DNA of 40,645 nt from IMG/VR virus record IMGVR_UViG_3300045988_117988; one strand, written 5' to 3'. The position numbers were made by a program, and so were the translations under genes. This DNA comes from a virus. Of the stretch, positions 14,004-34,647 are shown one piece after another (within the stretch, counting starts at the first letter, position 1; each line of letters starts with the position of its first letter). The notes under the pieces are model-generated. The model was not told the origin of the DNA and searched no databases. It saw nothing but the letters and a program-made list of their open reading frames with translations.

Positions 14004-14441
14004 ATGAGTAAGTTTTTAGAAATGATAGACTGCATCTCGCGCAAAGGCCGGAACATAGACGAAGTTACCGCCGTACTGGATGACGCTATGGGCATAATTA
14101 AAGACCGCATGCCCGACCTGTACCACGAAACCATACACCAGCTTGCGGCCATAGCTTACGCCATAACCCCAGAGGAAGCGCGGGACAAGGTACGCTCCAT
14201 GCGTCCTTACGGCCAGAAGTGGGATTATGATACCGTCAAAGCATTCCTTGCCGCGAAGGGCATCAACAACGACGTATGCAAATACTACCTTTGCATGAAT
14301 ATGGCCTACAACGACTACTACAAGACGGCGGAGAGCGTGGGGAAGGGCGAAGATCCCGAATTCTATTTCAGCATAGCAAGGGACTTTATCAACGACGCAG
14401 ACGCATCACCGTTCAAGATAGAGAAGTATTTCTCTGCGTAA
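14004..14441 (+). CDS. Hypothetical protein
   Basis: 145 aa, starting 2 nt after the upstream stop codon. Confidence 0.55.
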   Translation: MSKFLEMIDCISRKGRNIDEVTAVLDDAMGIIKDRMPDLYHETIHQLAAIAYAITPEEARDKVRSMRPYGQKWDYDTVKAFLAAKGINNDVCKYYLCMNMAYNDYYKTAESVGKGEDPEFYFSIARDFINDADASPFKIEKYFSA

Positions 14442-15604: not shown

Positions 15605-18600
15605 ATGGCATACACTAAGGAGCAAATGGCGAGTGCGGCGGGCGTAATAGATTCCGGCAAAGGCGTTAATAAAAAGGTAAACGTTAGCAACGAATCCCTA
15701 AGCGCAGGCTCATACGAAGGTGCTATGGCTCGGCGCGAGGCCTCCGGCGGCAGGGTAGGCGACGGGCGGTATGACAAAGACGCTTATGTCTATCGCCCCG
15801 AAACCAATACTTTTTATGATACTGAAGCTGTTCAGAAGGCAAAGGACAGCTTTACAAACTGGATGACCGCCGGCAAGGGCGCGAACAACAAGAACTGGGG
15901 TTATGATATGAGCGACCCGGAAGATGTAAACCGCTACTATTCCGGACAGATATCAAAGAAGTATGAAGCCGGGTACGGCACTGATTCTTTTTCTCAGTGG
16001 TTGAAGGAAAACGGTTTGCCGCAGGCTGACTACTTCGACAGCAAGTATTATAAAGATGCCTACGCCTCTGTTCTTGCCGATCGCGTAGAGAAACAGAAGG
16101 CGCGGGATTTTAGGAATGCCGTAGTCCGGGAAATGTGGAACACCGCCAGCGACCCCATGAATCTGACAGATGAGGATTTGGTTGCGGCATATGACAGGGT
16201 AAGGCTGAACAACCCGATATATAACGGTATCGAGCTTTACAATGCCAAAGACAAGGACACGGACTACGGCGATTACGATTCCCAGATTCTTGCCGAACGG
16301 GCGGCGCAGGAAAAGGAAACCAAGAGCAGGGCGGGCAAGCTGAACATAGATGAAGTCTGGGGCGATATTGACCGACTGCAACGGGCGCAGAACACCCGCG
16401 AACAGTGGGCGGCTGACAAGGTTAAAGCAGAGGCGGAAACCAAAACCAATCAGGCGCAGAAAATCATTGACAACGCCATAGCCAACAACAACTTTTCCGC
16501 CGAGATAGATAAGCGCGTTGGCCTTGCAAAGGATAGCAATCTCAACGAATACAACGCGAACAAGCAGCGTAAACAGGCTGCGTCGGATGCCGCTATAAAT
16601 GCCATGCGTGAAGCCGGATATTCCAATCAGGATATAAAGAAGAGTATTCGTAACGACGGCAGGCTTTCATATTCTGAATCCACCGAAGGCAAGGCCAACG
16701 AAGCGGAACGCATAAAGCGGCGCGACAGCTCCGATACCACGACCGCAAAGATATTGGGCGGCATGGACAGCTTTACGCAGGGCGCAGTTGACAAGGCTAA
16801 GAAGCTGGGCAATATGGGGACATCGGCACAGCAAGGCTTTTCCCCCATCTCCATGATGGAGGGCTACGGCATGTCAGCGCAGGAAACGCAAGCTGTGAAC
16901 AACTATGTGGATACCACCCGCGCCATACTCGAAACACAGGGCTACAACGGCCTTGAAATCGACAACGCACTCCGCCGCGCAGATTTAGGCGAATACATAC
17001 CCACGGCGACCGCCCGCACGAATTATGCCACGTATACCTTGCAGGAGTGCGGCATGAGCGACGAGCAGATTCAATACGTCCTCAGCACCTACACCGAGGA
17101 CGACTGGAAAAACACGGACAGGGACATGAAGGCCAGCGATTATGTGGAGAACAGTACCGTTGACCAGTTGGCAAACTCCATCATATCCATGCCTATTCGC
17201 GCAGCCCTGTCTATCGCCACCGGAGCTGTCGGCCTTGCGGACATGGCAACTGCCGGGATACAGAAGCGCGATGAGCTTTGGAAAACCACACAGGCATTGC
17301 AGGAGGAAGCCGCATGGTGGACACAGTATTCACACGACCGCAACCACGAGATAATTTCCACCGCTGCCGATGTCGGTTCGGAAATCATGCGCATGTACGC
17401 CACTTCCCTTACGGGTTCAGTCCTTGCGGCAGGAGCGACAAAGGTTCTGGGCAACGCCGCCGGAACAAACTTCCTGTTCGGTTTCATCACCAAGAACGCA
17501 AGCCGTATGCCGTTCGTGGCCAACTCCATAGGCAACTACTACCTTGAAGCCATGAACGACGGCGCAACGACAGGACAAGCAACGGCATATGCCATTCCCG
17601 CCGGACTTCTCGAAGGCTACCTTGAATCCCTTGAAATGGGTGAAACCCTGCAACACGCCTTCGGTACAAACATAGTCGGTAAGAAAATCGCGGCAAGCGG
17701 CCTTTCCGCCAACTTCAAGACCTTCGCAATAACAAAGGGTATGCCCTTTGTCAACTTCGCATTGGGCACCATCGGTGAAGGTCTTGAAGAAGCCGCGTCC
17801 TACTACGGCTCGTCAATCGCGAGAATGGCTACATGGGATAAGGGATATGAAATGGACTTCTCCGAAATGTGGGACAATGCTAAAGGCGGTTTGCTCATAG
17901 GCGGCATAATGAATGGCCTGTCTATGGGGGCGCATACGCAATCCTACAAATACGCATCGGAGATATACAAGGGCACTGGCGGCAACTATGCGGCTTACCT
18001 CGATAGTTTCATGTCTGCTATGCACATGGAGAATATGAACGATGTGCAGCGGCAAGCTCTCATTGACAAGTATAACAGCGGCGAGATCAACGTTTCCCGC
18101 GACGCTGCCATTAACGCAGGAGTTGAGATACAGACCAATGCCGAAGTAGTATCTGCTAAGAAACAGGCCGTTGAGTCCGCAGAAAACGATGCTGCCGTTA
18201 AGGTGGAGAACGCCAACAATAAAGTCACTCAGGCCGAACAGCGGCTTGCCGGTATTGACGATCCCGACCCAGTAAAGAAGGGCAAAAAGATTGCACAGGC
18301 ATCTCGGGAGCTGACTGCGGCAAAGGCAGCAGCGAGCCAAACGGCGAGCGAGGGGCAGAAGAAGGTAGACACTGCGACGGCGGACTACAAGTCCGAAGCG
18401 GCAAAGGCCAAGCGCAAGAATGCCGCCAATCAGCAGCTGGTTGACGAGTATCACGCATCGAAGTATTGTAGCGATATAGAACGTGACACCGTAAACGCCC
18501 CCGTAGGCGGTTCAGCCGCCGACCCAGCCGCTAATACCAATGTGGGTGCAAATACGGCTCAGAACGGTATTGATACAATCAAAAATGGTGTTGCGCAGAC

Positions 18601-21600
18601 AGCAAACGAAAAGTATAATAATAACAGAGGTGAGATAAATGGAGCAGAAAACGGAAGCCAAGCTCAAGCCGGAGGAAATGCCGGAGTATCAGGACAAGCT
18701 GTCACAGAGCCTGATTCGAGGATGGCGCAAACAGTTTCCGGAATGGACGGACGAGCGGATTATAGAGGAATTGGAAGCCCTGTAAAGGATATCATCCGGC
18801 AGCAGGGCGCGACCCCTGTTGATTTAAGGACGGCATCAGACCCGTCCTCTTTTTATGCCGCAATATCCGAGGCAAAACAAAATAATCCGCATGGCGCGTT
18901 TGTAACGGCGCACGATGTTTCGGAGTATGGCGATATGAAGATGTTCCTGGGCGATGATAACGGTGTCGGCGTAGCGGTGACAAAAGACGGCGACATTGTA
19001 TCTGTATTCAAAAATCCCAATATATCAAAGTCGCGCAAGGCGGTATCCTCCATATTACTTACCGCCATCGACAACGGCGGTGTAAAACTGGATAACTATA
19101 ATGGTGGTCTTTCACAAATGTACCTTAACCACGGCTTTATCCCCGTGGCGCGAACCGCATTTGTAGATGAATACGCTCCATCCGACTGGAACTATGAACG
19201 CGACGGCAGGCCGGACATCATCTTCTGGATGCATAATGGCAATGACGTGGAAACTGTAGCACGGAATATAGGTACTCAGGAAATGCCAGACCTGAAAGCC
19301 TTGCCACTCATGGAGTACGACGAAGCCGCCGCATACCGAGACGGGCTCATAACCAAGAATGCATCGGCTAACTCTACACTCAAAGACCTTGGTGCAAATA
19401 CGCCTACGCCCGCCGAATTGAAACAGTCCAAGGTGTACACCAACACTTATGACAAGTGGCTCACCGATGCTGAAAAGGCAGCTGACAGCGCAGAAAATTC
19501 CGTGTATGCCGTATCTAAGGAATCTGACAGTATCGCCATGGCGAAAGAAAGAGTTCGCGCCTCCATAGACGAAACCGGCGGCATAGACAAGGCTATTTAT
19601 GGACTTGACCATGGCTCATGGGACGCGCCTGACGTTGATACCGCTATGCTTATAGGCGAGATGCTACGGGCAGAGGCGGCAGAAACGGGAGACTATACGA
19701 AGCTTAATGACTGGAAGCAGGAAATCCAGCGGCACATGACAGAAAGCGGCCAGGCCATACAGGCCCTTGCCAAGTGGACGCGGGATAGTGCTGTCGGTGC
19801 GGAAACTGCCCTTGATAAGGCTGTGGCTGACATCAACAAGAAGTACAAGAATCGGATAGACAGCGGCAAGATGTCCGCTATCGAGGTTAACCCGGAGTTG
19901 CTGGCAGAACTCAACGGTACTCAGACCCGAGCAGAACGCGATGCCGTCATGAACAAGATTGCTGCTGACATAGGTTCTAAGATGCCGGCTGGCATATTGG
20001 ATAAAATCAGGGCGTGGCGCTATCTTTCCATGCTGGGCAATCCACGAACAGTTCTCCGCAATCTCATAGGCAACGAGATAATGTCCGATGTTCTTTGGAC
20101 TTCTAAAGATGCTGTTGGCACGGCCCTTGAAAAGGTAATGGGTGTTGAACAGTCTCAGCGAACAAAAGCATTAGCTTTTGGCGACGCTTATAAGGCGAAC
20201 AAGGCGTATGCCGCAACTACCCTTGACGATGCCCGCGCTGCCCTTGAAGACAGTTCAAGGTACGACACCAAGAGCGGCATTGAACGGGCGATAGATGAGA
20301 ATCGGCAGATATTCAAATTTAAGCCTGTTGAGAAGTGGCGTGAGGCTACCGATTGGGCATTAAGTAAGGGCGACACCGTATTCCTCGAAAAGCAGTACAA
20401 GCGTTCCTTTGCGCAGATTATGACAGCACGGGGCTACACTCCTGACACCATGACGGCAAAGCAGCGCTCAGAGTGCATGAACTACGCCATCAACGAAGCG
20501 AAGCGTTCAACCTTCCACGATGCAAATTCTCTTGCTGACGCTATGACGAAGATAGAGAATAAGAACCTTGCTACAAAAATACTTGTAGGCGGCACTGTAC
20601 CGTTTAAGAAGACCCCCTTAAACGTCCTTGCCCGTGGGGTTGAGTTTTCACCCATCGGCTTGATACAAGGCACCGGACAGATGCTCACCGATGTTAAGGC
20701 AGGAAAGATGGACGCTTCGACAGCCATTGATAAAATGTCCTCTGGCCTTGTAGGTTCTTCCCTTATGGCATTGGGCTACTTCCTTGCGAAGTCTGGCGTA
20801 ATAAGCGGTGGCGATAATGACGAAGATAAGTACTACCAAAGCGATCTCGGCAAACAGGAATATGCTCTTAATTTACCCGGCAGCAGCTCCATGACCATTG
20901 ACTGGGCGGCTCCCGCGTCAATCCCCCTGTTTATGGGTGTTGCCCTGCAAGAGTTGATAGATGGCAGCGGCAGCAGCGACGAAGCACAGACCGTTGGCGA
21001 CCACATTGATGCTTTCCTTGGCACTCTCTCATCAATTACAGACCCGCTTGTGGAAATGAGTATGTTGCAGGGCTTACAGGATACGCTTGAAGCCGTGGCC
21101 AATGCGAGGAGCGACGGCAACAGCCTCATAGGCGCGGCTCTTGTCACCGCAGGCAGGGGCTATGCAAGCCAGTTTGTTCCTACCATTGGCGGTCAGATTG
21201 CGAGGACGATAGACCCGGTGCGCCGCGATACCGTAGGCGACCCCACTTCCGAGCTCGGTAAGGATTTGGATAAAGTAACAAATAAAATGCAGGCGAAGAT
21301 ACCCGGCCTTGCCAGTGACTTGCAGCCCTATATTAACGTGTGGGGCGAACAGGAGATAAACGAGCATAGCTGGCCTGTCCGTCTGTTAGAGCAGACCATA
21401 CTGCCCGGCTACCTTGACGAGGTTGATATGACCCCTGTTGATGTGGAGCTGACCCGCCTGTATTCCGTCACGCAGGACCCCTCTGTCGTTCCGTCGAACT
21501 ATCCATATCGCACTCTGAAGAGCGGAGATGAGCGATACGTCCTTACCGCAGACGAGTACACCGAATTCAAGATCGAAAACGGCAGGGCCATGTATGCGGC

Positions 21601-21736
21601 CGCAGAGGACGCTATTAACAGCTCGCAGTATTCCCGCATGAGCGACGATGAAAAAGCATCCTACGTTGCTAAAGCAATCAGGGACGCACAAGATGACATA
21701 CTGAAAAGGTACAAGAAAAAGTACCTCGGCAAATAA
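15605..21736 (+). CDS. Giant (2043 aa) multidomain virion-associated / polyvalent-type protein
   Basis: A single uninterrupted ORF with AAGGAG before the ATG. It has a Gly/Ala-rich hydrophobic region (about aa 520-790) and a coiled coil (about aa 830-950). A GNAT-fold-like segment reads HGAFVTAHDV...DGDIVSVFKN...LLTAIDNGGVKLDNYNGGLSQMYLNHGFIPVAR. A conserved C-terminal module contains WRYLSMLGNPRTVLRNLIGN and VPFKKTPLNVLARGVEFSPIGL. Confidence 0.7.
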   Translation: MAYTKEQMASAAGVIDSGKGVNKKVNVSNESLSAGSYEGAMARREASGGRVGDGRYDKDAYVYRPETNTFYDTEAVQKAKDSFTNWMTAGKGANNKNWGYDMSDPEDVNRYYSGQISKKYEAGYGTDSFSQWLKENGLPQADYFDSKYYKDAYASVLADRVEKQKARDFRNAVVREMWNTASDPMNLTDEDLVAAYDRVRLNNPIYNGIELYNAKDKDTDYGDYDSQILAERAAQEKETKSRAGKLNIDEVWGDIDRLQRAQNTREQWAADKVKAEAETKTNQAQKIIDNAIANNNFSAEIDKRVGLAKDSNLNEYNANKQRKQAASDAAINAMREAGYSNQDIKKSIRNDGRLSYSESTEGKANEAERIKRRDSSDTTTAKILGGMDSFTQGAVDKAKKLGNMGTSAQQGFSPISMMEGYGMSAQETQAVNNYVDTTRAILETQGYNGLEIDNALRRADLGEYIPTATARTNYATYTLQECGMSDEQIQYVLSTYTEDDWKNTDRDMKASDYVENSTVDQLANSIISMPIRAALSIATGAVGLADMATAGIQKRDELWKTTQALQEEAAWWTQYSHDRNHEIISTAADVGSEIMRMYATSLTGSVLAAGATKVLGNAAGTNFLFGFITKNASRMPFVANSIGNYYLEAMNDGATTGQATAYAIPAGLLEGYLESLEMGETLQHAFGTNIVGKKIAASGLSANFKTFAITKGMPFVNFALGTIGEGLEEAASYYGSSIARMATWDKGYEMDFSEMWDNAKGGLLIGGIMNGLSMGAHTQSYKYASEIYKGTGGNYAAYLDSFMSAMHMENMNDVQRQALIDKYNSGEINVSRDAAINAGVEIQTNAEVVSAKKQAVESAENDAAVKVENANNKVTQAEQRLAGIDDPDPVKKGKKIAQASRELTAAKAAASQTASEGQKKVDTATADYKSEAAKAKRKNAANQQLVDEYHASKYCSDIERDTVNAPVGGSAADPAANTNVGANTAQNGIDTIKNGVAQTANEKYNNNRGEINGAENGSQAQAGGNAGVSGQAVTEPDSRMAQTVSGMDGRADYRGIGSPVKDIIRQQGATPVDLRTASDPSSFYAAISEAKQNNPHGAFVTAHDVSEYGDMKMFLGDDNGVGVAVTKDGDIVSVFKNPNISKSRKAVSSILLTAIDNGGVKLDNYNGGLSQMYLNHGFIPVARTAFVDEYAPSDWNYERDGRPDIIFWMHNGNDVETVARNIGTQEMPDLKALPLMEYDEAAAYRDGLITKNASANSTLKDLGANTPTPAELKQSKVYTNTYDKWLTDAEKAADSAENSVYAVSKESDSIAMAKERVRASIDETGGIDKAIYGLDHGSWDAPDVDTAMLIGEMLRAEAAETGDYTKLNDWKQEIQRHMTESGQAIQALAKWTRDSAVGAETALDKAVADINKKYKNRIDSGKMSAIEVNPELLAELNGTQTRAERDAVMNKIAADIGSKMPAGILDKIRAWRYLSMLGNPRTVLRNLIGNEIMSDVLWTSKDAVGTALEKVMGVEQSQRTKALAFGDAYKANKAYAATTLDDARAALEDSSRYDTKSGIERAIDENRQIFKFKPVEKWREATDWALSKGDTVFLEKQYKRSFAQIMTARGYTPDTMTAKQRSECMNYAINEAKRSTFHDANSLADAMTKIENKNLATKILVGGTVPFKKTPLNVLARGVEFSPIGLIQGTGQMLTDVKAGKMDASTAIDKMSSGLVGSSLMALGYFLAKSGVISGGDNDEDKYYQSDLGKQEYALNLPGSSSMTIDWAAPASIPLFMGVALQELIDGSGSSDEAQTVGDHIDAFLGTLSSITDPLVEMSMLQGLQDTLEAVANARSDGNSLIGAALVTAGRGYASQFVPTIGGQIARTIDPVRRDTVGDPTSELGKDLDKVTNKMQAKIPGLASDLQPYINVWGEQEINEHSWPVRLLEQTILPGYLDEVDMTPVDVELTRLYSVTQDPSVVPSNYPYRTLKSGDERYVLTADEYTEFKIENGRAMYAAAEDAINSSQYSRMSDDEKASYVAKAIRDAQDDILKRYKKKYLGK

Positions 21737-21740
21737 CACG

Positions 21741-21769
21741 ATAGCCCCCTTACCGGGGGCTATTTTTTA
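21741..21769. terminator. Bidirectional terminator between the convergent late and early blocks
   Basis: ATAGCCCCC-ttacc-GGGGGCTAT followed by TTTTTT. It overlaps the last codons of the minus-strand gene. Confidence 0.8.
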
Positions 21770-22244
21770 TTGCCTTGTTATACGCCTTGATTTCCAGTGC
21801 TTCTTCAACCACAGTTTCAATTACCCGGTTGCGGTATGTGTAGTATGTCTGCACCCGCTCTATGTGCAGTGCCGCCATTATCTCGTCGCGCACGGCTCCG
21901 GCCCGCGCTTTGCTCACCGGACGGCCAGTCAGGCCGAAACCAAACTCCATGAAATAGGCCAGGCCTTTGTCCTCGTGCGTATATGCGCACCAGACGTTCT
22001 CAATAGCTTTGATCCACAGATCATCTTCCTCATTTATGGCTTTTGCCCTTGCCGTTGCCAGCCTTATGCCGCCAGATTCCGTTTTGCTGGTGCTAACACT
22101 GTGCTTGACCGGGGTGTTATCCCCGCTACCGTATGCGGCGTATACTGCATCGTCCACAATCTCTTGCCTTGTCTTAGCTTCACGCGCCTTGACTTTTTGG
22201 TAGTTATACAGATACCATTCCGCCCTTTTGTGCATTTTGCCCAT
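21750..22244 (-). CDS. RinA/ArpU-like late transcriptional activator (sigma-like)
   Basis: N-terminal AEWYLYNYQKVK and C-terminal ALHIERVQTYYTYRNRVIETVVEEAL. GGGAGG lies 8 nt before the ATG at 22244. It is the last gene of the early block. Confidence 0.65.
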   Translation of the reverse strand: MGKMHKRAEWYLYNYQKVKAREAKTRQEIVDDAVYAAYGSGDNTPVKHSVSTSKTESGGIRLATARAKAINEEDDLWIKAIENVWCAYTHEDKGLAYFMEFGFGLTGRPVSKARAGAVRDEIMAALHIERVQTYYTYRNRVIETVVEEALEIKAYNKAIKNSPR

Positions 22245-22611
22245 TTGAATCGCCTCCCAGCTTTTCACGTGTAGCTGCCGCTACAAAGTCGGTTCGGCTC
22301 AAATAAAGGCCCTCGGTTATCAATCCGTCAATCCGTTCCGCCAACGCTATAGGTATCTTCACCATAGCAGAAGTCGGTTTGCGTTTCTTTTCTGCCGCGT
22401 CTATGCCGAAACATAAACGCAGTATATCAGGCGGGTATATCTTTTCGGCGGGCACATCGTAGTATGTCATAGCCTTGACCAGTTCGCACTTATTTAGCAC
22501 CGCCCGTCCGCTCTCCATCATGCTGTACACGCCCTGGCTCATGTCAAGCGCAGCCGCCGCTTCTGCTTGCGTCCTATTCCCCCGGAGCTTCTTCAGGTTG
22601 TTTTTTATCAT
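22204..22611 (-). CDS. DNA-binding protein: XRE-type HTH + C-terminal ribbon-helix-helix-like segment
   Basis: LKKLRGNRTQAEAAAALDMSQGVYSMMESG, then MVKIPIALAERIDGLITEGLYLSRTDFVAAATREKL. AAGGAGG precedes the ATG. Confidence 0.7.
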   Translation of the reverse strand: MIKNNLKKLRGNRTQAEAAAALDMSQGVYSMMESGRAVLNKCELVKAMTYYDVPAEKIYPPDILRLCFGIDAAEKKRKPTSAMVKIPIALAERIDGLITEGLYLSRTDFVAAATREKLGGDSNGQNAQKGGMVSV

Positions 22612-23014
22612 CGGCTTCCTCCTTATCCATTTTCGCCCCGCAGTTGGGGCAGTAGTTTTCTCCAGTAGGATTGAGCCCTACCGAATAACCGCATACAGAG
22701 CAAGTCCATTCATGGAATGTCCGTCCCCAATCATCGTTTTCTATTTCTGAGTGTATCCACTTCCCATACCGCACCGGCTCCACGTCTGTGCGGGGTTCTG
22801 TGATCTCGAATTCCTCTGCAAGCCAATTAAACACATTATCAAGGCAGTATGAGCCAAACCCAATGTGGCATTCTCCGTCCGCTGGGTTAAAGTACCAGAT
22901 GTTGTAACACGGCTTTTCAGGTATTCCTTCCACGACAATTCTGGCGAATGGTGTTTTTATCTTGTGTTTGCACTCATCCGCACTCGCTGCCTCCCGGCTG
23001 ATGTAGTTACTCAT
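22574..23014 (-). CDS. MSK-family member: xDVxPVxxGxW + C-terminal Cys4 zinc ribbon
   Basis: Starts MSNYISREAA. Contains TDVEPVRYGKWI and CSVCG...CPNCGAKM. GGAGGAA precedes the ATG at 23014. Confidence 0.7.
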   Translation of the reverse strand: MSNYISREAASADECKHKIKTPFARIVVEGIPEKPCYNIWYFNPADGECHIGFGSYCLDNVFNWLAEEFEITEPRTDVEPVRYGKWIHSEIENDDWGRTFHEWTCSVCGYSVGLNPTGENYCPNCGAKMDKEEADDKKQPEEAPGE

Positions 23015-23015
23015 T

Positions 23016-23345
23016 TTATTCCTCCGGTTCACTTGTACTATCGCAAATATTCAGAATCTGTTGGAGCAATTCAATCTGCCCGTTTCTGTGACCATAGCGA
23101 TACCCGGTTGTATACGTTTCGGCCGTGTCTCCACTGTTCTTGTCTTTTTCAGCAACGAGCGCCTGATACTTGGCTCTCAAATCTTCAAGTTCCACAGCCG
23201 GAGCAACATCGGCGGCGGGGATATCCTTCAAGTCGATTTCCTTGATGTACCTGTGCAATACAACTCCGTTCAATTCAGGGTCGTAGTGCTTTACTTCAAT
23301 AACCTTTTCCAGCGCCGCTTCTCGCTCTATGTACTCTTTACTCAT
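23016..23345 (-). CDS. MSK/IPAADV-family member with a helical C-terminal module
   Basis: MSKEYIEREAALEKV...IPAADVAPAVELEDLRAKYQALVAEKDKNSGD... The C-terminal 55 aa are identical to those of 24329-24673. Confidence 0.7.
   Translation of the reverse strand: MSKEYIEREAALEKVIEVKHYDPELNGVVLHRYIKEIDLKDIPAADVAPAVELEDLRAKYQALVAEKDKNSGDTAETYTTGYRYGHRNGQIELLQQILNICDSTSEPEE
23021..23219. repeat. Direct repeat copy A (partner 24343-24541)
   Basis: Constant offset of 1322 bp between the copies. Positions 23056-23219 match 24378-24541 with one mismatch (23106 G vs 24428 A). The preceding 35 nt are about 75 percent identical. Confidence 0.9.
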
Positions 23346-23535
23346 TCTCCGTCCTTTCTGCGTTCAGCCAGTTTTCCAGCATTTTCCGGCATTCGCTGGG
23401 ATACAATTCGCCGAGTATTCTCGCCATTTCTATGCATTCGTCAACCACCGGGCATAGTGAGCAATTTATTCTTTTGACAAGTTTAGCCGCCAGCCATTCA
23501 GCGGATTGCTGTTTTAGGTATTCGTGGTTAGTCAT
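23338..23535 (-). CDS. Hypothetical small Cys-containing protein
   Basis: 65 aa counted from the ATG at 23535, which lies 5 nt after GAGGTGA. Sequence MTNHEYLKQQSAEWLAAKL...CSLCPVVDEC. Confidence 0.55.
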   Translation of the reverse strand: MTNHEYLKQQSAEWLAAKLVKRINCSLCPVVDECIEMARILGELYPSECRKMLENWLNAERTENE

Positions 23536-23568
23536 GCCGCTCACCTCGCTCAATAGCTTCTTCACGTG

Positions 23569-23739
23569 TCATTCCTCATTACCTCTCTCCTCTGCATAGT
23601 TTCGTCTAAATGCCCTATTCATATATCGTTTTGCCCATCTGACCCATTTCTTTGAAACACATATCCAATTTTTCTCATATAACCGCCACTGAACATCGTG
23701 AGACTTGCCAGATATACGTTTATATGAGGATTTACTCAT
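23569..23739 (-). CDS. Small basic protein (56 aa, MSKSSYKR...)
   Basis: The ATG at 23739 sits within the shared ATGAGTAAA junction. The protein is rich in Lys/Arg/Trp. Confidence 0.5.
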   Translation of the reverse strand: MSKSSYKRISGKSHDVQWRLYEKNWICVSKKWVRWAKRYMNRAFRRNYAEERGNEE

Positions 23740-24085
23740 TGTCATTGCCCCTTTTGCTGGTTCCGTCCTCCCTCCGTTCGCCCTGAGCGCAGTAAAACAT
23801 CTCATCAACGTCGTTTTTATCATCGTTAAACCACGGCTGGTCGCAGATGCCCCAATCCGGCGCACTGCCATCAGTCAGCTCCGCTTTGCAAGGGTGATAG
23901 TGTACGCAGTTTTTACATCGTACTACCACGTCGGCGGCAGGAAATTTCATTAACTCTTTTGCCACTACTTGCGCTCCTTTGAGAAACGCTATTGATTCGG
24001 GCGTATTGTCTTTTTGTTTTCTCAATGTGGATAGCGTCTTACAAAGTGCTTCTACAAAAGCATCAACGTTTACATATTTACTCAT
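23732..24085 (-). CDS. MSK/FPAADV-family member with a Cys/His-rich C-terminal module
   Basis: The internal start MSKYVNVDAF at 24085 lies behind AAGGAGGACGGAGA. Contains FPAADVVVRCKNCVHYHPC. Confidence 0.65.
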   Translation of the reverse strand: MSKYVNVDAFVEALCKTLSTLRKQKDNTPESIAFLKGAQVVAKELMKFPAADVVVRCKNCVHYHPCKAELTDGSAPDWGICDQPWFNDDKNDVDEMFYCAQGERREDGTSKRGNDNE

Positions 24086-24336
24086 TCTCCGTCCTCCTTG
24101 TTCATCCTTGCTCCGCAGGTATCGCAGTACGGCGCTCTGTAATCTTCCCATTCATGTTCTTCGCCGCATTCTGAGCAAATCTGTATGCCATCCTCTTCGA
24201 TCCATCGTCCGCGCCGCACCGGGGTAACATCGGCGGCAGGAATTTGCTCGATGTATTGCGTCGGCTCAAGCCCCTTTGCCCATGCGTGTCTTACTGCCAA
24301 TATCGCTTCTTCGCGGCCTATATATTCTTTACTCAT
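24082..24336 (-). CDS. MSK/IPAADV-family member with a Cys4 zinc ribbon
   Basis: MSKEYIGREEA...IPAADVTPVRRGRWIEEDGIQICSECG...YCDTCGARM. GGAGGAG precedes the ATG at 24336. Confidence 0.7.
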   Translation of the reverse strand: MSKEYIGREEAILAVRHAWAKGLEPTQYIEQIPAADVTPVRRGRWIEEDGIQICSECGEEHEWEDYRAPYCDTCGARMNKEDGE

Positions 24337-24673
24337 TTGTCTCCTCCGGCTCGCTTGTACCATCGAAAATGCCTAAAATCTGTTGGAGCAATTCAATCTG
24401 CCCGTTTCTGTGACCATAGCGATACCCAGTTGTATACGTTTCGGCCGTGTCTCCACTGTTCTTGTCTTTTTCAGCAACGAGCGCCTGATACTTGGCTCTC
24501 AAATCTTCAAGTTCCACAGCCGGAGCAACATCGGCGGCGGGAATCCCCTGAACTATTTTAATCATCCTATCCACGAAATCAGTTATAGTGATATATGGCA
24601 TTTTTCTGATTATGAATGCTGCCTCTTTAATCAACGCTTGTTCTGTCATATCGCGATCTATGTATTTACTCAT
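24329..24673 (-). CDS. MSK/IPAADV-family member with a helical C-terminal module (paralog of 23016-23345)
   Basis: MSKYIDRDMTEQ...IPAADVAPAVELEDLRAKYQ... Confidence 0.7.
   Translation of the reverse strand: MSKYIDRDMTEQALIKEAAFIIRKMPYITITDFVDRMIKIVQGIPAADVAPAVELEDLRAKYQALVAEKDKNSGDTAETYTTGYRYGHRNGQIELLQQILGIFDGTSEPEETNE
24343..24541. repeat. Direct repeat copy B
   Basis: See copy A. Confidence 0.9.
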
Positions 24674-25064
24674 TGTTACCGCCTTTCAACATCAGTTCTG
24701 CCAAATCGCAAGCCGCCAGATATGTCTTCTCGTGAATTGTTCCGGCGTGTACTTTTTTAACCCGCTCCTTAAATGCCGCCATATCCGAAAACCAACACCC
24801 GGCGCGGACAAACATATTGCCGTTATCGTCTATGTAAAAATAGGCTTTTCGGTTTTCGCTGCCTATCCTATCCACGGCGACATAGCGGCCATTTTTCACT
24901 GCGCCGTTTTCGTAACTGCACACCTCGCTAAAGTTGCACTCCTCGCCAAAGCTGCACCTCTCGCCAAAGCCTTTTATTGCGGTATAATCCCCAGCAGGGC
25001 ATATCTTGCGACCATACTCATCTACTTCAAAGTTGTCAAAATCCGCTTGCGTGTACTTTTTCAT
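24666..25064 (-). CDS. Hypothetical protein
   Basis: 132 aa. Its stop codon shares the ATGAGTAA junction with the next gene. Confidence 0.6.
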   Translation of the reverse strand: MKKYTQADFDNFEVDEYGRKICPAGDYTAIKGFGERCSFGEECNFSEVCSYENGAVKNGRYVAVDRIGSENRKAYFYIDDNGNMFVRAGCWFSDMAAFKERVKKVHAGTIHEKTYLAACDLAELMLKGGNNE

Positions 25065-25225
25065 TGCTCTTTCCTTTCCCTTATTCTTTCTTCCAACAGC
25101 AGTTTCACCGACTTACAAAGCCACCACACCAGGTTATTTTGCCACATATCCCGGTGGGTTTGCGTCTGTATCATGCCCTGTTCCATTTGTTCCGCGCACT
25201 CTATCATTTGTTCTATACGGGTCAT
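25061..25225 (-). CDS. Small hypothetical protein (54 aa, below the ORF-track cutoff)
   Basis: Hand translation: MTRIEQMIECAEQMEQGMIQTQTHRDMWQNNLVWWLCKSVKLLLEERIRERKEQ. It starts 2 nt after the upstream stop and overlaps the downstream start as ATGA. Confidence 0.45.
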   Translation of the reverse strand: MTRIEQMIECAEQMEQGMIQTQTHRDMWQNNLVWWLCKSVKLLLEERIRERKEQ

Positions 25226-25503: not shown

Positions 25504-25507
25504 TTTT

Positions 25508-25966
25508 TTATTCTCCTTTCCAGCACCCCACAACAAGGTTGCTTACGCCCTGTATGGGTAAATCCTTTAGTATCTGCCGCAGTCGGCAGTTATGTTTCGC
25601 GCCGTCACAGGTAAAGCACTCGGTTTTGGTGGCGTACTCTGCAAGATCGGCTAAATCGTCATAGCTCATCACCCAGTAATTCTTGTCCCGCCCCGCTGCG
25701 GATTTAATGCCTATGCGGATTTCGGTTAGGTCGAGTTGTCGCTTGACGGTCAATAGCTGCTCTACAGGCACGGTATCCAGCAGCCTTGTGATAACACTTG
25801 CTATCCTGCTCTGCGCTATGCGGTAGTCCCGCCAGCATCCGGGTACGCGCTGACATAGTCTCTGATATCCTCCGGAAAACTTGTCGAGAATATTATCCAG
25901 CGCGAACAGTGCAGCGAACAATTCCCGCTCTTCAGCAGTCATTCTCTTTCGTTCCGTTGATTGCAT
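25508..25966 (-). CDS. Hypothetical protein (conserved phage early protein type)
   Basis: 152 aa with GGAGGA 8 nt before the ATG. No catalytic motif was recognised. Confidence 0.6.
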   Translation of the reverse strand: MQSTERKRMTAEERELFAALFALDNILDKFSGGYQRLCQRVPGCWRDYRIAQSRIASVITRLLDTVPVEQLLTVKRQLDLTEIRIGIKSAAGRDKNYWVMSYDDLADLAEYATKTECFTCDGAKHNCRLRQILKDLPIQGVSNLVVGCWKGE

Positions 25967-26231: not shown

Positions 26232-26672
26232 TTAAAATTTCCTCCTTGCGTACTCTGCCATCAATAACGCTTCTGCCATTCCATCATCATCCGTTCTGCA
26301 TTTGTCCGTTCGCCTTAAGCTGATATCAGGGAACAGCCGTTTGCAGACTTCTATGCTCTGCTTTTTATCGCTACCAAGGGAAAATTCTTTTTTCCACTTC
26401 TGAGGTGGTACAAGCTGATAAGATATACCAAGCGTTTCAAGCACTCCCTCGATGTATCCCGCGTTTTTTCCGAAATTAAACATCGAGGTAACACCTTGCC
26501 CCGGCATTGCGCCGACCTTTTCAACACAAGCTGTCATTGTTGTATGCTTGCTTGCCCTTGCGAATTTAATAAACTCTTGTGCATCCCACGGTATGGCAAC
26601 GGCACATTGTCTATCTTTATCTATTGCGGCAAACGCACCGCTTTTTCCGGGGTCTATTCCGATGTAAATCAC
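26232..26672 (-). CDS. RuvC-like Holliday-junction resolvase
   Basis: IYIGIDPGKSGAFA at the N-terminus and DDDGMAEALLMAEYA near the C-terminus. 146 aa. Confidence 0.8.
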   Translation of the reverse strand: MIYIGIDPGKSGAFAAIDKDRQCAVAIPWDAQEFIKFARASKHTTMTACVEKVGAMPGQGVTSMFNFGKNAGYIEGVLETLGISYQLVPPQKWKKEFSLGSDKKQSIEVCKRLFPDISLRRTDKCRTDDDGMAEALLMAEYARRKF

Positions 26673-26953
26673 TTCTCCCCCTCCATTTCCGCAGCACAGC
26701 CGGGACAGTAGTGCAGGCCCGTTTTGTTGCCGTGCTTGTAGTAGGCGTTACGGCTCCGCTTCTCATAGCGGCCACAAACAGCGCAGAAAACTTGCACCTT
26801 GTTCCGGCCCTGATACCGCCTGTCTAATATCCAACGGCTTGTTTGAGGCCGTATAACGCGAGCCGGGGGTATGTCGTGTACTGCGGATATTACCTCGTCG
26901 TCCACATCATAAAGGTTTAGCACGTTATCCACATCTTTTATCTCTACATACAT
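26669..26953 (-). CDS. Zinc-ribbon protein related to the IPAADV family
   Basis: DIPPARVIRPQTSRWI followed by CAVCG...YCPGCAAEM. Confidence 0.6.
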   Translation of the reverse strand: MYVEIKDVDNVLNLYDVDDEVISAVHDIPPARVIRPQTSRWILDRRYQGRNKVQVFCAVCGRYEKRSRNAYYKHGNKTGLHYCPGCAAEMEGEK

Positions 26954-28251
26954 ATTTGTTCGTCCTCTCCTATCGCATCGAAATCTATCTCGTGTTCATA
27001 AAACCTGAAGTGTTCGCCGTCCCACAAGAGGTTGCATTCGCCAGTCCGCCCGTTGCGGTTCTTGGCTATAATCACGGTTGCTTCCTTCTCGTCCTTGCTG
27101 GTGTCATAAACCGCCGGGCGGTAGAGAAAAAGCACCTCATCCGCGTCCTGTTCTATGGCTCCTGATTCGCGCAGATCGGACAGCATGGGCCGGTGATCGC
27201 TGCGCTGCTCGGGGTTGCGGGAAAGCTGGCTCAGTATCAGTACAGGCACATTCAGTTCCCTTGCCATCAGCTTCACACTCCGGCTGATCTCTGATACTTC
27301 CGTTACTCTATCACGAGTTTTCCCCCGGCCCTGTATTAAACCCAGATAGTCTATCACCACCAGATCAAGGGCTTTTTCTTGCTGTCGTATGGCATAGCAA
27401 CGAGCCTTCATTCTGTCCACGGTCAGCGCATCGTCTATGACATACAGCTTAGTTTTGCTTAACGTGTCCGCAGTTTCAGCCGCTAAAGTTACCTGCTTCG
27501 GATCACCTGACTGTGCGTCAATGTCGCTGTACAATGCAGTGCTCATAACCGCTCTCCTGATGATGTCCTCCTCGTTTATTTCAAGGCTGAATGCCGCCAC
27601 CACCCTATCTTGCATGGCCACATTTACGGCTATATTCATTCCGAATGAGGTCTTGCCCATAGAGGGGCGGGCTCCGATTACAGTCATATGTCCCGGCTTC
27701 AGTCCCCTCAGTTTAGTATCCAGCGCCAGGAATCCCGTCTTGAGGCCGCTGTCCTTAGCGCCTATGCTCAACACCGCCGAAAGGAACTTATCTCCTACCG
27801 GGGCTACTGTGCCGCTTCCTATAGCCTTTACTCCGTCAATGACGCTTTGGGCATCGGAGATATAGTCAGAATCCGCACCGGTTTTAATGTCGTCAAGTAC
27901 CCGCTGCAATCCGGCCACAAGATGCCGTTGGCCAGAAGCAGCCATAACGCCATTGATGTAATATGCGGCATTAGCACCAGAGGGGACGGCAAGGGACAGT
28001 TTGGTGATATAGGTTATCCCACCTGCCGTTTGTAAATCAGTCCCCAGCGCATCCATCAGCGTAATGTTATCGCACGGCGTACCGTCGTGGAACATCTTTT
28101 GCATGGTGCTGAAAATGATTTGATTTTCTATTTCCCCGAAATCCTCAACACGCAGGCAACCGCAGCCCTTTTCAAAGGCTTCACGGCTTATCAGCATCGA
28201 GCCTAACAACGCTCTTTCCAGTTCTGTCGAAGTACTCACGCAAGACTTCAC
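26944..28251 (-). CDS. dnaB: Replicative DNA helicase DnaB
   Basis: N-terminal ELERALLGSMLISREAF, Walker A GARPSMGKTSF, and the later motifs DYLGLIQ and LSQLSR. Confidence 0.9.
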   Translation of the reverse strand: MKSCVSTSTELERALLGSMLISREAFEKGCGCLRVEDFGEIENQIIFSTMQKMFHDGTPCDNITLMDALGTDLQTAGGITYITKLSLAVPSGANAAYYINGVMAASGQRHLVAGLQRVLDDIKTGADSDYISDAQSVIDGVKAIGSGTVAPVGDKFLSAVLSIGAKDSGLKTGFLALDTKLRGLKPGHMTVIGARPSMGKTSFGMNIAVNVAMQDRVVAAFSLEINEEDIIRRAVMSTALYSDIDAQSGDPKQVTLAAETADTLSKTKLYVIDDALTVDRMKARCYAIRQQEKALDLVVIDYLGLIQGRGKTRDRVTEVSEISRSVKLMARELNVPVLILSQLSRNPEQRSDHRPMLSDLRESGAIEQDADEVLFLYRPAVYDTSKDEKEATVIIAKNRNGRTGECNLLWDGEHFRFYEHEIDFDAIGEDEQICM

Positions 28252-29659: not shown

Positions 29660-30289
29660 TTAGCTGAGCTTAATTGTTACCTTCTCGGGCTCGTCGTCCT
29701 TAACGTCCTTGACTTCTTCGACGGTCTGTAGGCCCATTAGTGCATGGGGACAATAGACACGGGCAAAGAATGCGGCAGCGCGGTACTGGAGCATTTGGTC
29801 GCCCATTGTCAACCACTTACTGCCCTTCTTGCTTGTCCAGCCCTCGGCCTCTGCCATGGCATAATCTACTACTGTGCCAGTGATTATCGCGCCGTCGCTC
29901 TTACGTGTGGCCTGAACGTAGCAGCCATAGGAAGGTGTTCCCTTCTCACCGACAAATACAAAATTCAGAGGGCCGAAAAGTCCGGTGCCGTTTATGAGGC
30001 TGATACAAGCCTGTCCGCTCCATGCTGGACGGCCCTGAACAATATATAGCGACTGCATAACGGCCATGGGGGATACGCCCATGCGGTTAGCCATCTCACA
30101 CGCTACAAAACAAGAATCGGGGTCATTGCGGTATGAATCGGGTACGAGTTTGCTCCGGGACATCATGCTTGCCAGCTTGACCAGCGTGTTAAGCTGTTTG
30201 GGGTCCGTTAGTGCCGTGGGCTGAATAGCTGTCTGTTCGATCGAAGCTATTGCCTGTTCTTCATTAGCTGCCTGCTTTACTTTTTCCAT
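29660..30289 (-). CDS. recT: RecT-family single-strand annealing protein
   Basis: GRPAWSGQACISLIN...WLTMGDQMLQYRAAAFFARVYCP pattern. It is adjacent to the exonuclease gene. Confidence 0.8.
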   Translation of the reverse strand: MEKVKQAANEEQAIASIEQTAIQPTALTDPKQLNTLVKLASMMSRSKLVPDSYRNDPDSCFVACEMANRMGVSPMAVMQSLYIVQGRPAWSGQACISLINGTGLFGPLNFVFVGEKGTPSYGCYVQATRKSDGAIITGTVVDYAMAEAEGWTSKKGSKWLTMGDQMLQYRAAAFFARVYCPHALMGLQTVEEVKDVKDDEPEKVTIKLS

Positions 30290-30888
30290 TACTTTTTCTT
30301 CCTCTCTTTCTTCTCAAAAATCTTGTGAATTGCGTAACACGCCCGGAAAATTGTGTCATCTATAGGCATCTCAATCAGCTTATACGTGCCGTCTTTGCGC
30401 AGATGCAGACAGTACAGAACGTCCACCTTTAAACCGTTGGCCTCGGCGATAAGCTTGTAGCCGTTAAGCTGTGCGCCCACATAGGGCTTGTGTACCGTGG
30501 CGGTAGTTTTAAGGTCTACAATGACCTGTCCACCTTTAACCTTGCCGTACCTGTCCAGCGTTCCTGCTGCGGTCAGTGTGTCATTGTCCACGTAGCAGGC
30601 GTATTCAATCCGTGTCCACTCCGGGGCTATGTCCTTGCGGAACTGGATATAAGCCTTAATGTACGGCTCAATGTCCTTGTCAATCTCTGCCTCCCCGTAC
30701 TTGTCCAGCACCTCGCAAGCCTTGTGTACCCGCTTGCCTCTGTCGGCGGCATTGTCCAGTGTATACTGCGATATGCTGGAGTACATCTCCCGCGACAGGA
30801 ACCGCAGTATCTCGCTGACCGCCGGAATCTTTTTGTCGCCCACGACATACTCATGTTCGGCATCAAAAAACTTTAGTATCTGTGCCAC
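30289..30888 (-). CDS. PD-(D/E)XK exonuclease (RecE/Cas4-like partner of RecT)
   Basis: GTLDRYG...VIVDLKT (D..D.K motif) and N-terminal HEYVVGDKKIPAVSEIL. GTG start 10 nt after GAGGAGG. Confidence 0.7.
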   Translation of the reverse strand: MAQILKFFDAEHEYVVGDKKIPAVSEILRFLSREMYSSISQYTLDNAADRGKRVHKACEVLDKYGEAEIDKDIEPYIKAYIQFRKDIAPEWTRIEYACYVDNDTLTAAGTLDRYGKVKGGQVIVDLKTTATVHKPYVGAQLNGYKLIAEANGLKVDVLYCLHLRKDGTYKLIEMPIDDTIFRACYAIHKIFEKKERKKK

Positions 30889-33562: not shown

Positions 33563-33970
33563 TTGTTGTTATATGAACATTTACGCGCCATGAAGGACGC
33601 GAGTAATATGACGGCGCAGCAGATAGCGGACAAAAGTAGTGTGCCCGTTGCCACGGTAAACCGCGTGCTTCAGGGCTTAACGGAAAATCCGGGGTTCGAT
33701 ACGGTCTACAAGATAGTAAAGGCCATGGGCGGGAGCCTGAACGATCTGGACGAGGATAGGGTGTGTGAGCCGGAAGGATTGACGCAGTTATACGAAAGAG
33801 GGTTAGAATACAGGGAGCGGAAGATAAAGAAGCTGGAACGCACGATAATGATAATAGCGGTATTTACTTTTATTGTTATGGCGGCGGTCATAGGAATGCT
33901 GGTATATGATATGACGCATCCTAGCATTGGATGGATACAGACCGCGAGTAATGCGGTGGCAATGATATAG
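33563..33970 (+). CDS. Membrane-anchored HTH protein (XRE-type HTH + C-terminal TM)
   Basis: TTG start behind GAAGGTG. HTH MTAQQIADKSSVPVATVNRVLQG and TM segment IMIIAVFTFIVMAAVIGMLVY. Confidence 0.65.
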   Translation: MLLYEHLRAMKDASNMTAQQIADKSSVPVATVNRVLQGLTENPGFDTVYKIVKAMGGSLNDLDEDRVCEPEGLTQLYERGLEYRERKIKKLERTIMIIAVFTFIVMAAVIGMLVYDMTHPSIGWIQTASNAVAMI

Positions 33971-34539: not shown

Positions 34540-34647
34540 ATAAAGGAGCCTCGGTGCGGGAACACCAACGGCTCCGGGTGCAAAATAAGTCCTGACACGG
34601 GCTACTTTTTGCATCCTCTATTTTACCAAATAAAGGAGGATTTTACA

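Follow-up and report, generated by a model that had tools for sequence, protein, structure and literature searches.

The DNA analysed here, a stretch of 40,645 nucleotides referred to below as the window, is that of a temperate phage of gut Clostridia, and relatives of the protein family described in the following were found mostly in genomes of Oscillospiraceae and Ruminococcaceae; isolate genomes with such relatives include those of Dysosmobacter and Pseudoflavonifractor. Between about 22.6 and 25.5 kb it carries an array of small minus-strand genes (Table 1), the part of the early operon that varies most, with limits at about 25506-25519 (start) and 22624-22642 (end). The same minus-strand unit also holds RecT, DnaB and a resolvase-like gene, in which the array follows promoter-like sites near 32.6 kb and precedes the terminator-like hairpin; a putative late regulator, which has no Pfam match, occupies 21750-22268. 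From this position in the operon the array can reasonably be taken to be expressed early, as the first-pass annotation had proposed.

Table 1. Genes, motifs and repeats of the array and its surroundings, with positions in the window.
Feature	Position	Strand	Description
Tyrosine recombinase integrase	34609-35742		about 10 kb from the array
PD-(D/E)XK nuclease, weak match	30289-30888	-	adjoins RecT; E 4.6e-4, under the curated cutoff
RecT-family single-strand annealing protein	29660-30289	-	PF03837, E 1.1e-7
Outlying family member	26669-26953	-	94 aa; degenerate hinge IPPARV and ribbon
Conserved upstream flank gene	25508-25966	-	weak DUF5651 match
g7	24666-25064	-	132 aa; upstream cassette, not a hinge protein; PHROG 20532 (function not annotated)
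g6	24329-24673	-	114 aa; N-module, IPAADV hinge, helical C-module
g6 hinge DNA motif	24528-24543	-	coding-strand core GCCGCCGA
221-nt direct repeat, copy 2	24329-24549		
g5	24082-24336	-	84 aa; N-module, IPAADV hinge, Cys4 zinc ribbon
g5 hinge DNA motif	24227-24242	-	
g4	23732-24085	-	117 aa; N-module, FPAADV hinge, Cys/His-rich C-module
g4 hinge DNA motif	23928-23943	-	
g3b	23569-23739	-	56 aa, basic; starts with ATGAGTAA, no hinge
g3a	23338-23565	-	Cys-containing; 75 aa from GTG, 65 aa from ATG at 23535
g2	23016-23345	-	109 aa; N-module, IPAADV hinge, helical C-module
g2 hinge DNA motif	23206-23221	-	
221-nt direct repeat, copy 1	23007-23227		helical C-module, hinge to ATGAGTAA of next gene
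g1	22574-23014	-	146 aa; large N-module, degenerate hinge, Cys4 ribbon
Conserved downstream flank gene	22204-22611	-	HTH_3 and RHH
Bidirectional terminator-like hairpin	21740-21764		closes early (minus) and late (plus) units

The octamer TTACTCAT stands on the plus strand at 23007, 23338, 23732, 24078, 24329 and 24666, and each copy is the ATGAGTAA start of a minus-strand open reading frame. Eight copies were counted in the window where 1.03 were expected, a number that none of 100 shuffles reached. Six consecutive genes with this start had been described in the first-pass annotation; all six starts were found, but the genes are not strictly consecutive, as g3a, a seventh gene inside the array that starts without the octamer, intervenes. 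The four identical 8-nt overlaps described there proved to be exactly so: at 23338, 23732, 24329 and 24666 the codons AAT GAG TAA (NE*) of one gene lie over the ATG AGT AA of the next, the first of these overlaps being made by the NE* stop of g7, a gene that also contains an 18-nt tandem repeat. At 24078 the overlap is of 4 nt (ATGA) and the upstream gene ends in GE*, and at 23007 there is none, TAA being followed by one base and then ATG. The other two copies of ATGAGTAA in the window (14004 and 33982, plus strand) also start open reading frames, those of unrelated genes, so that the octamer also serves this phage as a preferred context for gene starts; and since, in addition, the commonest start in distant relatives is ATGGCTGA, the octamer itself is to be seen as a local feature. 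It is all that g3b has in common with the hinge genes, and a conserved homologue of g3b in the related genome L100 (3097-3267) suggests that this is a real gene. At the other end of the array, the tail of g1 overlaps the conserved HTH gene.

Four of the genes had been said to encode the hexapeptide (I/F)PAADV, and ACRTCGGCGGCRGGRA does encode it at exactly the four motif sites of Table 1, with 0 expected. Members of the family begin with a cap, M-S/A-K-E-Y-I-x-R-E (also found as M-x-(K)-E-Y-I-x-R-E), which is followed by a hypervariable helical insert, then by the hinge, (I/F)PAADV-x-PV-x-x-G-x-W, and finally by one of several exchangeable C-modules, i.e., a Cys4 zinc ribbon (CxxC...CxxC), a Cys/His-rich module or a helical module. 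The cap is present in g1, g2, g5 and g6 and partial in g4 (MSKYVNVD), while it is missing from g3a, g3b and g7, which do not belong to the family; in g1 the degenerate hinge reads TDVEPVRYGKW (22772-22786). Between non-homologous genes exact identity extends over 8-13 nt at the hinge, around the core GCCGCCGA, and over 9-19 nt at the start/stop junction, where it comprises ATGAGTAA, the ribosome-binding site and the cap. The helical C-modules of g2 and g6 form a 221-nt direct repeat of 93% identity, the central 165 nt of which contain a single differing site; the 16 mismatches of the pair are of a mixed spectrum and not adenine-specific.

The family, whose profile A1 is defined by g5 and overlaps PHROG 22543, is very large, with 1,734 cluster representatives or more at a cutoff of E <= 1e-10; none of Pfam, NCBIfam, PADLOC and the PDB has a name for it. 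The ribbon proteins at 22574-23014 and 26669-26953, earlier put forward as relatives, were recovered as such by hhalign with probabilities of 98.7% (E 2.7e-16) and 95.1% (E 3.3e-8), respectively. g5 matches PHROG 22543 over the hinge and ribbon (E 6.7e-9) and g1 matches PHROG 10714 (E 4.4e-5), two unannotated groups, neither of which captures the modularity of N- and C-parts. Scans of all array proteins against Pfam, PHROGs, PADLOC and NCBIfam gave nothing informative, with generic zinc-ribbon matches below threshold, and PDB sequence and profile searches with the g5 family, g6 and the g4 family gave no match. An AlphaFold2 model of g5 (pLDDT 82.6; 48.9 for g4) had nothing significant in the PDB by Foldseek (best E 0.18), and its matches in a BFVD fold search were unnamed or auto-named gut-virome proteins only. 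At the DNA level the INPHARED phage records matched over a 126-nt piece and nothing else, tblastn matched unannotated faecal contigs only, and searches of the literature on the peptide motifs and on comparable linker systems found nothing relevant.

The comparison of related genomes allowed the history of the array to be followed. In sister genomes the flanks are 97-98% identical and the arrays differ; L005 and L006 are without most of the window's array genes, which are therefore dispensable. Mosaicism extends beyond the array, other blocks of the early region having been replaced as well. L010 and L014, which have different replication genes, have blocks in common whose ends fall precisely on hinges (23928-24544 and 23928-25078). 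The hinge of g4 is the block end for both L010 and L014, that of g5 for L003, and that of g6 is the end of blocks common to L014 and L018. Seven of the 11 distinct similarity-block ends lie at most 6 nt from a motif, where 13% would be expected (P = 1.6e-4). An invariant syntenic array without breakpoints at the motifs, which the first-pass annotation had set against its own proposal, is not what was found, since sister arrays differ and block ends coincide with the motifs. The variation was seen between genomes and samples, and not within one genome.

N- and C-modules combine freely. Among 221 homologous proteins there are 36 N-module clusters and 51 combinations of N- and C-modules; the g5 ribbon follows at least 10 unrelated N-modules, and the g4 N-module precedes at least seven different C-modules. 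For three recombinant genes both parental sequences are present in the window, and all three crossovers can be placed within the hinge, to 12, 8 and 2 nt. In the recombinant that joins the g6 N-module to the g5 C-module, the two parts are identical to their parents at 134/135 and 136/148 positions and the crossover interval is GCCGCCGATGTT; its tail differs from that of g5, to which the alignment was anchored on the hinge core. In the one that joins the g4 N-module to the g6 C-module the identities are 147/147 and 188/202 and the interval is GCCGCCGA, and in the third, with the g2 N-module and the g5 C-module, the 2-nt interval lies beside the core. Among the homologous proteins, P0025 is the g6 N-module fused to the g5 ribbon and P0017 the g2 N-module fused to that same ribbon, and the g6 hinge motif is the crossover site of both P0025 and P0154. 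The module-shuffling architecture proposed in the first-pass annotation is well supported by these three junctions within the hinge, together with the differing sister arrays and the block ends at both motifs.

The hinge is conserved at the DNA level as well as at the protein level. Within the phage group its Ala-Ala pair is encoded by GCC GCC in 14 of 14 contexts, against a GCC background of 0.29. Among 51 distant genes GCC makes up 75% of the hinge Ala codons, compared with 8% at a ribbon Ala of the same genes that is just as well conserved (p = 2e-14) and 13% elsewhere (p = 3e-26), and GCC GCC encodes 59% of the hinge Ala-Ala pairs, compared with 11% of other Ala-Ala dipeptides (p = 1.4e-10). 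The Pro and Asp codons of the hinge vary at the third position.

Recombination acts here at two short islands of DNA identity, the hinge and the start/stop junction, lying amid unrelated sequence, and we consider it likely that the array is a hypervariable early-operon segment of an unnamed two-module family that is shuffled by recombination at these islands. Crossovers at the hinge produce in-frame chimeras of an N- and a C-module, and crossovers at the junctions lead to whole cassettes being swapped, deleted or duplicated. The exchanges would be events on the scale of microhomology, probably helped by the phage's RecT-type annealing protein during the lytic replication of co-resident phages or prophages, and the uniformity of the hinge codons may be kept up by repeated exchange or by selection for exchangeability. 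RecT, judged from its sequence match, is a candidate driver of such short-homology exchange: enzymes of the RecT and Redbeta type make phage genomes mosaic by using homologies that are short and diverged (PMC3945230). The minimal pairing segment quoted for Redbeta is 23-27 bp (PMC3945230), and since the 8-13 nt of identity at the hinge fall below it, efficient homologous exchange would not be expected there.

This shortfall below known pairing minima speaks for an explanation in which the hinge is conserved for structure only: the cap and hinge strands would close the N-module, illegitimate recombinants broken at the module boundary would survive, and the GCC GCC bias would be translational or act at the RNA level, e.g., by ribosome pacing. 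Selection for viable products after random illegitimate recombination would indeed also leave breakpoints at gene and domain boundaries. In the g5 model, moreover, the cap (residues 3-5) and the hinge (residues 35-37) are predicted beta-strands flanking the helices, so that structure by itself offers a reason for the conservation of the protein sequence, and the free third positions of the Pro and Asp codons fit the same account. Against it stands the preference for GCC at the hinge over an equally conserved Ala, and for GCC GCC there over other Ala dipeptides; all three mapped crossovers, furthermore, are located inside the stretch of exact identity itself, not just close to the module border. 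GCC is not rare but the commonest Ala codon in the window (0.29), which makes a rare-codon pause unlikely. We regard the structure-only account as unlikely.

Still less probable is the idea that the N-module is an RHH-like dimeric DNA binder and the family a regulator of phage transcription or replication. The predicted order of elements in the N-module, beta-alpha-alpha, fits that of an RHH protein, Foldseek lists the Rv0298 antitoxin, VapB and Arc with rmsd values of 2.0-2.6 A over about 31 residues, and some relatives are fused to the N-terminal part of an HTH protein. None of these RHH matches reaches significance, however (E > 2, probability 0.38 or less), and no array protein has a Pfam RHH match. 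The loss or replacement of most of the genes in near-identical phages is unlike an essential role, and the up to six or seven paralogues in a genome, with unrelated N-modules, also argue against a regulator.

Programmed diversification, in which a dedicated enzyme would rearrange modules inside one genome in the manner of a shufflon, an integron or a DGR, is suggested by variable segments flanked by short conserved repeats, as in shufflons and antigenic-variation cassettes, and is very improbable. The copies of the motif are all in direct orientation on a single strand, and the array contains no inverted repeats; the sole tyrosine recombinase is the distant integrase; no reverse transcriptase occurs among the scanned early-region open reading frames, and the mismatches of the long repeat are mixed; the variation, finally, lies between genomes or samples and not inside one genome. 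The shufflon, integron and DGR readings were rejected on the direct repeats, the distance of the integrase and the mismatch spectrum. That the chimeras are mis-assemblies of metagenomes across repeats is barely conceivable: the sequences come from assemblies of short reads, which a 221-nt repeat could lead astray, and the gene order of L018 may be affected, but typical assembler k-mers are longer than the 8-13 nt of hinge identity, which is too short, P0025 was assembled independently in three samples, and chimeras of the same classes turn up in JGI, ENA, Logan and NCBI data alike.

As to what the proteins do, no hinge protein matched a known defence or anti-defence family (Pfam including Tad8, PHROGs, PADLOC, NCBIfam), and the family and database matches included no homologue of housekeeping function. 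The homologous array in L100 holds a cassette for the Thoeris inhibitor Tad8 (82 bits) as a neighbour gene, and the neighbours of hinge genes elsewhere include Lar three times (3 of 145 sampled open reading frames) and methylases, with RusA, Dam, Lar, MazG, dUTPase, HNH and DUF551 among the neighbour families. The presence of Tad8, Lar and methylases in homologous arrays makes a role in host interaction or counter-defence plausible, on evidence that is circumstantial. Lar proteins (PF14354 / PHROG 6422) resemble those of the array in being small Cys4-ribbon proteins from the same kind of region; no array protein, on the other hand, has a Pfam match to Lar at E <= 1, the sole link being a weak match (E 0.0037) between the ribbon of g1 and PHROG 6422. 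With low confidence we propose that the hinge proteins may be dispensable host-interaction factors serving takeover or counter-defence, in which one module might set target specificity and the other be a common binding or effector part. Further still, and tentatively, the hinge could be a selected DNA recombination linker and the family a population-wide kit for making two-domain inhibitors of host or immune functions by the in-frame joining of N- and C-modules.

Like the nin region of lambdoid phages and the post-replication region of small open reading frames in Firmicutes siphophages, the array has the genes of replication and recombination on one side and the late-gene regulator on the other, consists of tight same-strand small open reading frames with overlapping stops and starts, and is mosaic between otherwise similar phages; the neighbour families, RusA and Dam among them, are a further likeness. 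This place in the gene order makes the region a nin-type accessory region, a positional class, and the functional counterpart of lambdoid nin. Unlike nin, the array is dominated by one two-module family that recombines intragenically at a hinge conserved at synonymous sites, and we know of no description of such an exchange for nin-type regions.

Joining at short conserved repeats with a combinatorial output is shared with shufflons (R64 Rci/sfx) and antigenic-variation cassettes (pilE/pilS, vlsE), in which a constant N-terminal part is combined with alternative C-terminal segments at short repeats. The array differs from these in having neither a dedicated recombinase nor inverted repeats and in that both halves vary, and also in that its exchange takes place between genomes over evolutionary time and is not a programmed switching within the cell.

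The array belongs to phage mosaicism at short linkers, an already known kind of phenomenon. Short conserved linkers at module borders were predicted by the modular theory of phage evolution, which Botstein is said to have set out in 1980 with conserved linker or boundary sequences, and boundary sequences have reportedly been described in HK620 and lambdoid phages; few clear examples are known to us, and mosaic joints mostly look random. The likeness lies in short conserved stretches at module borders, in exchanges that occur there, and in a phage that encodes RecT; unlike linker sequences, the array hinge is intragenic, is translated as PAADV, is 8-16 nt long and so below the quoted minimal pairing segment, and keeps its codon choice across thousands of divergent genes. 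Frequent exchanges of about 100 bp within genes have been ascribed to relaxed recombination by Rad52-like/RecT recombinases (PMC3945230).

The array is an unusually clean case of a linker: it is intragenic and translated, its crossovers were mapped to 2-12 nt, both parental sequences are present in one genome, and the synonymous-codon signal survives two internal controls. It also brings to light a very large, nameless family of small gut-phage proteins. If the linker kit is real, it would give phages an equivalent of antigenic-variation cassette systems that works without a dedicated recombinase. If the proteins are takeover or anti-defence factors, the matrix of N- and C-modules would be a ready map of specificity versus effector modules, and the family a natural source of modular inhibitors in abundant, little-studied gut bacteria.

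The octamer TTACTCAT occurs on the plus strand of the window in 8 copies against 1.03 expected, and all copies within the array (6/6) serve as the start ATGAGTAA of ORFs on the minus strand, as the first-pass annotation had described; its set of six genes stood as regards these octamer-started ORFs, but overlooked g3a, which lacks the octamer. The identical 8-nt overlaps claimed for four junctions (AAT GAG TAA over ATG AGT AA) were found as well, the remaining junctions showing one 4-nt ATGA overlap and one without overlap. Likewise, the 16-mer ACRTCGGCGGCRGGRA is present in the four copies claimed (23206, 23928, 24227 and 24528), where none is expected, each encoding (I/F)PAADV, the hinge between an N-module and a C-module (Cys4 zinc ribbon, Cys/His-rich or helical), and the outlying ribbon proteins proved by profile comparison to be members of the same family. 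The other two ATGAGTAA copies are also ORF starts (MSK...; 14004–14441 and 33982–34539, both on the plus strand), and, with all 8 window copies used as start sites, the phage seems to favour this context for initiation.

Features of the array and of its operon setting
Feature	Position	Strand	Remark
TTACTCAT in array	23007, 23338, 23732, 24078, 24329, 24666	+	six copies
g7	24666–25064	-	
g6	24329–24673	-	
g5	24082–24336	-	
g4	23732–24085	-	
g3b	23569–23739	-	
g3a	23338–23565	-	without octamer
g2	23016–23345	-	
g1	22574–23014	-	outlying ribbon protein
Second outlying ribbon protein	26669–26953		
Integrase	34609–35742		
Repressor-like HTH	33563–33970		
Promoter-like sites	near 32.6 kb		of the minus-strand unit
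PD-(D/E)XK nuclease	30289–30888	-	weak match; array-upstream, same unit
RecT-family gene	29660–30289	-	array-upstream, same unit
HTH_36 protein		-	replication-initiator-like; array-upstream, same unit
DnaB	26944–28251	-	array-upstream, same unit
HTH_3+RHH protein	22204–22611		downstream of array
Bidirectional terminator-like hairpin	21740–21764		

The window is a gut-metagenome phage contig of ~40.6 kb, and the phage appears temperate, encoding an integrase and a repressor-like HTH protein. The array sits within a long minus-strand unit and, from its position, would be expressed early, while a 172-aa ORF downstream of it we take to be a late regulator, judged from position only. The conserved HTH_3+RHH gene and the tail of g1 have 38 nt in common, and in other phages (proteins P0390, P0423 and P0424) the N-terminal ~80 residues of the HTH protein are fused in frame to g4-type hinge genes, the joint being a translated ribosome-binding-site region (...PTEKGETMSK...), which points to another breakpoint within the HTH gene. 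Convergent with the array is a 2043-aa ORF (15605–21736, plus strand), the last of the late operon, of which a segment of ~780 nt (18595–19378) is replaced in the sister phages L001, L003 and L005, the rest being for the most part 90% identical or more, with lower values in L005 and in a part of L003. A gene uncommon in phages, for a DnaJ-domain protein (PF00226, E 4.3e-7; 38080–38571, minus strand), lies between the integrase region and the terminase small subunit.

In the window's phage group, the hinge Ala-Ala is GCC GCC in 14/14 distinct contexts, the background GCC share being 0.29, and Ser2 is AGT in 6/6 genes versus 0.10 in the background. In 51 distant ribbon-type genes, picked by protein patterns that left the Ala codon choice free, GCC was used at 57/76 hinge alanines and GCG never, compared with GCC at 4/50 for the equally conserved Ala of CG-A-K-M (Fisher, p = 2e-14) and 43/336 for other Ala codons of the same ORFs (Fisher, p = 3e-26). 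Of the Ala-Ala pairs in the hinge, 59% were GCC GCC, compared with 11% for Ala-Ala dipeptides elsewhere (p = 1.4e-10). Hinge Pro and Asp codons vary freely at their third positions. The octamer itself is local: distant relatives most commonly start with ATGGCTGA (MAE), and at two or more loci (L063 and L066) starts of this type also share an 8-nt overlap with the upstream stop.

Homologues of g5, g6 and g4 share one module at ~90–100% identity while the partner is unrelated, the switch always falling at PAADV. By their N-modules, the 221 hinge-bearing proteins fall into 36 clusters, and they represent 51 N × C combinations, at least 14 N-modules being paired with both ribbon and helical C-modules; the g4 N-module has at least seven C-module partners. 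The family alignment runs from a conserved cap through a hypervariable middle and the hinge to the C-module. In an exhaustive profile search, cluster representatives numbered 1,734 at E ≤ 1e-10 and 20,012 at E ≤ 1e-3, the latter figure probably inflated by generic zinc ribbons; relatives come chiefly from genomes and MAGs of Oscillospiraceae, Ruminococcaceae and other Clostridia, with isolates including Dysosmobacter, Pseudoflavonifractor and Colidextribacter. Some representatives match the profile twice, e.g., P0338 (214 aa) and P0353 (205 aa), which suggests two tandem units fused into one protein. In P0081, the g5 ribbon is joined at ...GVPDVFIPAADV... to another N-terminal part, which by eye we take to resemble a VRR-NUC nuclease, so that hinge-type joints may capture unrelated genes too; a weak VRR_NUC match lies in a nearby gene of L014.

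Six IMG/VR contigs carry DnaB at 97–99% identity, with flanks (28300–25510 and ~22630–21700) mostly 97–98% identical to the window, yet in the interval between them the gene set differs from genome to genome; the array genes are dispensable among near-identical phages. The loci L010 and L014, whose replication genes are unlike the window's, share blocks with it at 98% identity that stop exactly at hinge motifs (23928–24544, from the g4 to the g6 hinge, and 23928–25078), and further block ends coincide with junction octamers (23332, 24086, 24675). Of the distinct internal block ends, 11 in all, seven are no more than 6 nt away from a motif, a zone that covers only 13% of the region (simulation, P = 1.6e-4). 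Other blocks of the early region are mosaic as well, none of them as large or as completely replaced as the array.

The crossovers could be followed at the nucleotide level in three recombinant genes from other samples, both parental sequences of which are present in the window. P0025 (L100) matches g6 on the N side (134/135) and g5 on the C side (136/148), with a 12-nt crossover interval, GCCGCCGATGTT, which is the longest exact match common to both parental hinges; P0154 (L103) passes from g4 (147/147) to g6 (188/202) within the 8 nt GCCGCCGA, and P0017 (L104) from g2 (124/129) to g5 (139/148) within 2 nt beside the core. Between non-homologous genes, exact identity spans just 8–13 nt at the hinge and 9–19 nt at the junction, the flanks matching no better than by chance, which excludes assembler chimerism and makes these events microhomology-scale; the runs fall below the minimal pairing segment of Redbeta, 23–27 bp as quoted in PMC3945230. 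Independent lines of evidence support the module shuffling that the first-pass annotation had proposed and place it at the two DNA motifs.

Repeats are also found within the array. In g2 and g6, the helical C-modules are the two copies of a 221-nt direct repeat (93% identity; a single differing site in the central 165 nt), and the gene order of the 1449-nt contig L018 (g3a, a g2-like gene, g5, g4) is that expected from unequal crossing-over between two such repeats, though in so short a contig it could be a mis-assembly across the repeat. An 18-nt tandem repeat in g7 (24917–24970) encodes three copies of the hexapeptide C-x-F-G-E-x, and its counterparts in the sister phages L005 (4432–5028) and L006 (12858–13490) have many more, giving proteins of 198 and 210 aa versus 132 aa in the window; g7 is a Cys-rich repeat protein of variable copy number (PHROG 20532).

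The AF2 model of g5 (pLDDT 82.6) shows a strand at 3–5 (the cap), helices at 8–20 and 26–29, a strand at 35–37 (the hinge) and a beta ribbon, from which we infer that the cap strand may pair with the hinge strand. PDB fold and sequence searches gave no significant match, RHH-like resemblances of the N-module stayed under significance, BFVD matches were unnamed gut-virome proteins, and Pfam, NCBIfam and PADLOC scans of the array proteins returned no applicable family. The homologous array of L100 includes, as a cassette at 2814–3104, a clear Pfam Tad8 member, "Type II Thoeris inhibitor" (E 2.5e-23; also in L101 and L102), with a g5-type ribbon gene on one side and a g3b homologue on the other, taking the place that g4 has in the window; Tad3–Tad8 have been reported as binders of TIR domains or Thoeris effectors (PMC13243611). 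A survey of 144 sampled neighbour ORFs, with the Tad8 gene added deliberately, yielded Lar (three), Dam and C5 methylases, DUF551 (eight), YopX (four), RusA, MazG and dUTPase, the majority of sampled ORFs being without family. Dispensability, the Tad8 cassette and these neighbours are circumstantial pointers to a hypothetical counter-defence role of the array proteins. We would best describe the system as an accessory region of the nin type, comparable in position to that of lambdoid phages, in which a very large, unnamed family of two-module proteins predominates, its hinge being translated and also serving as a microhomology crossover point.
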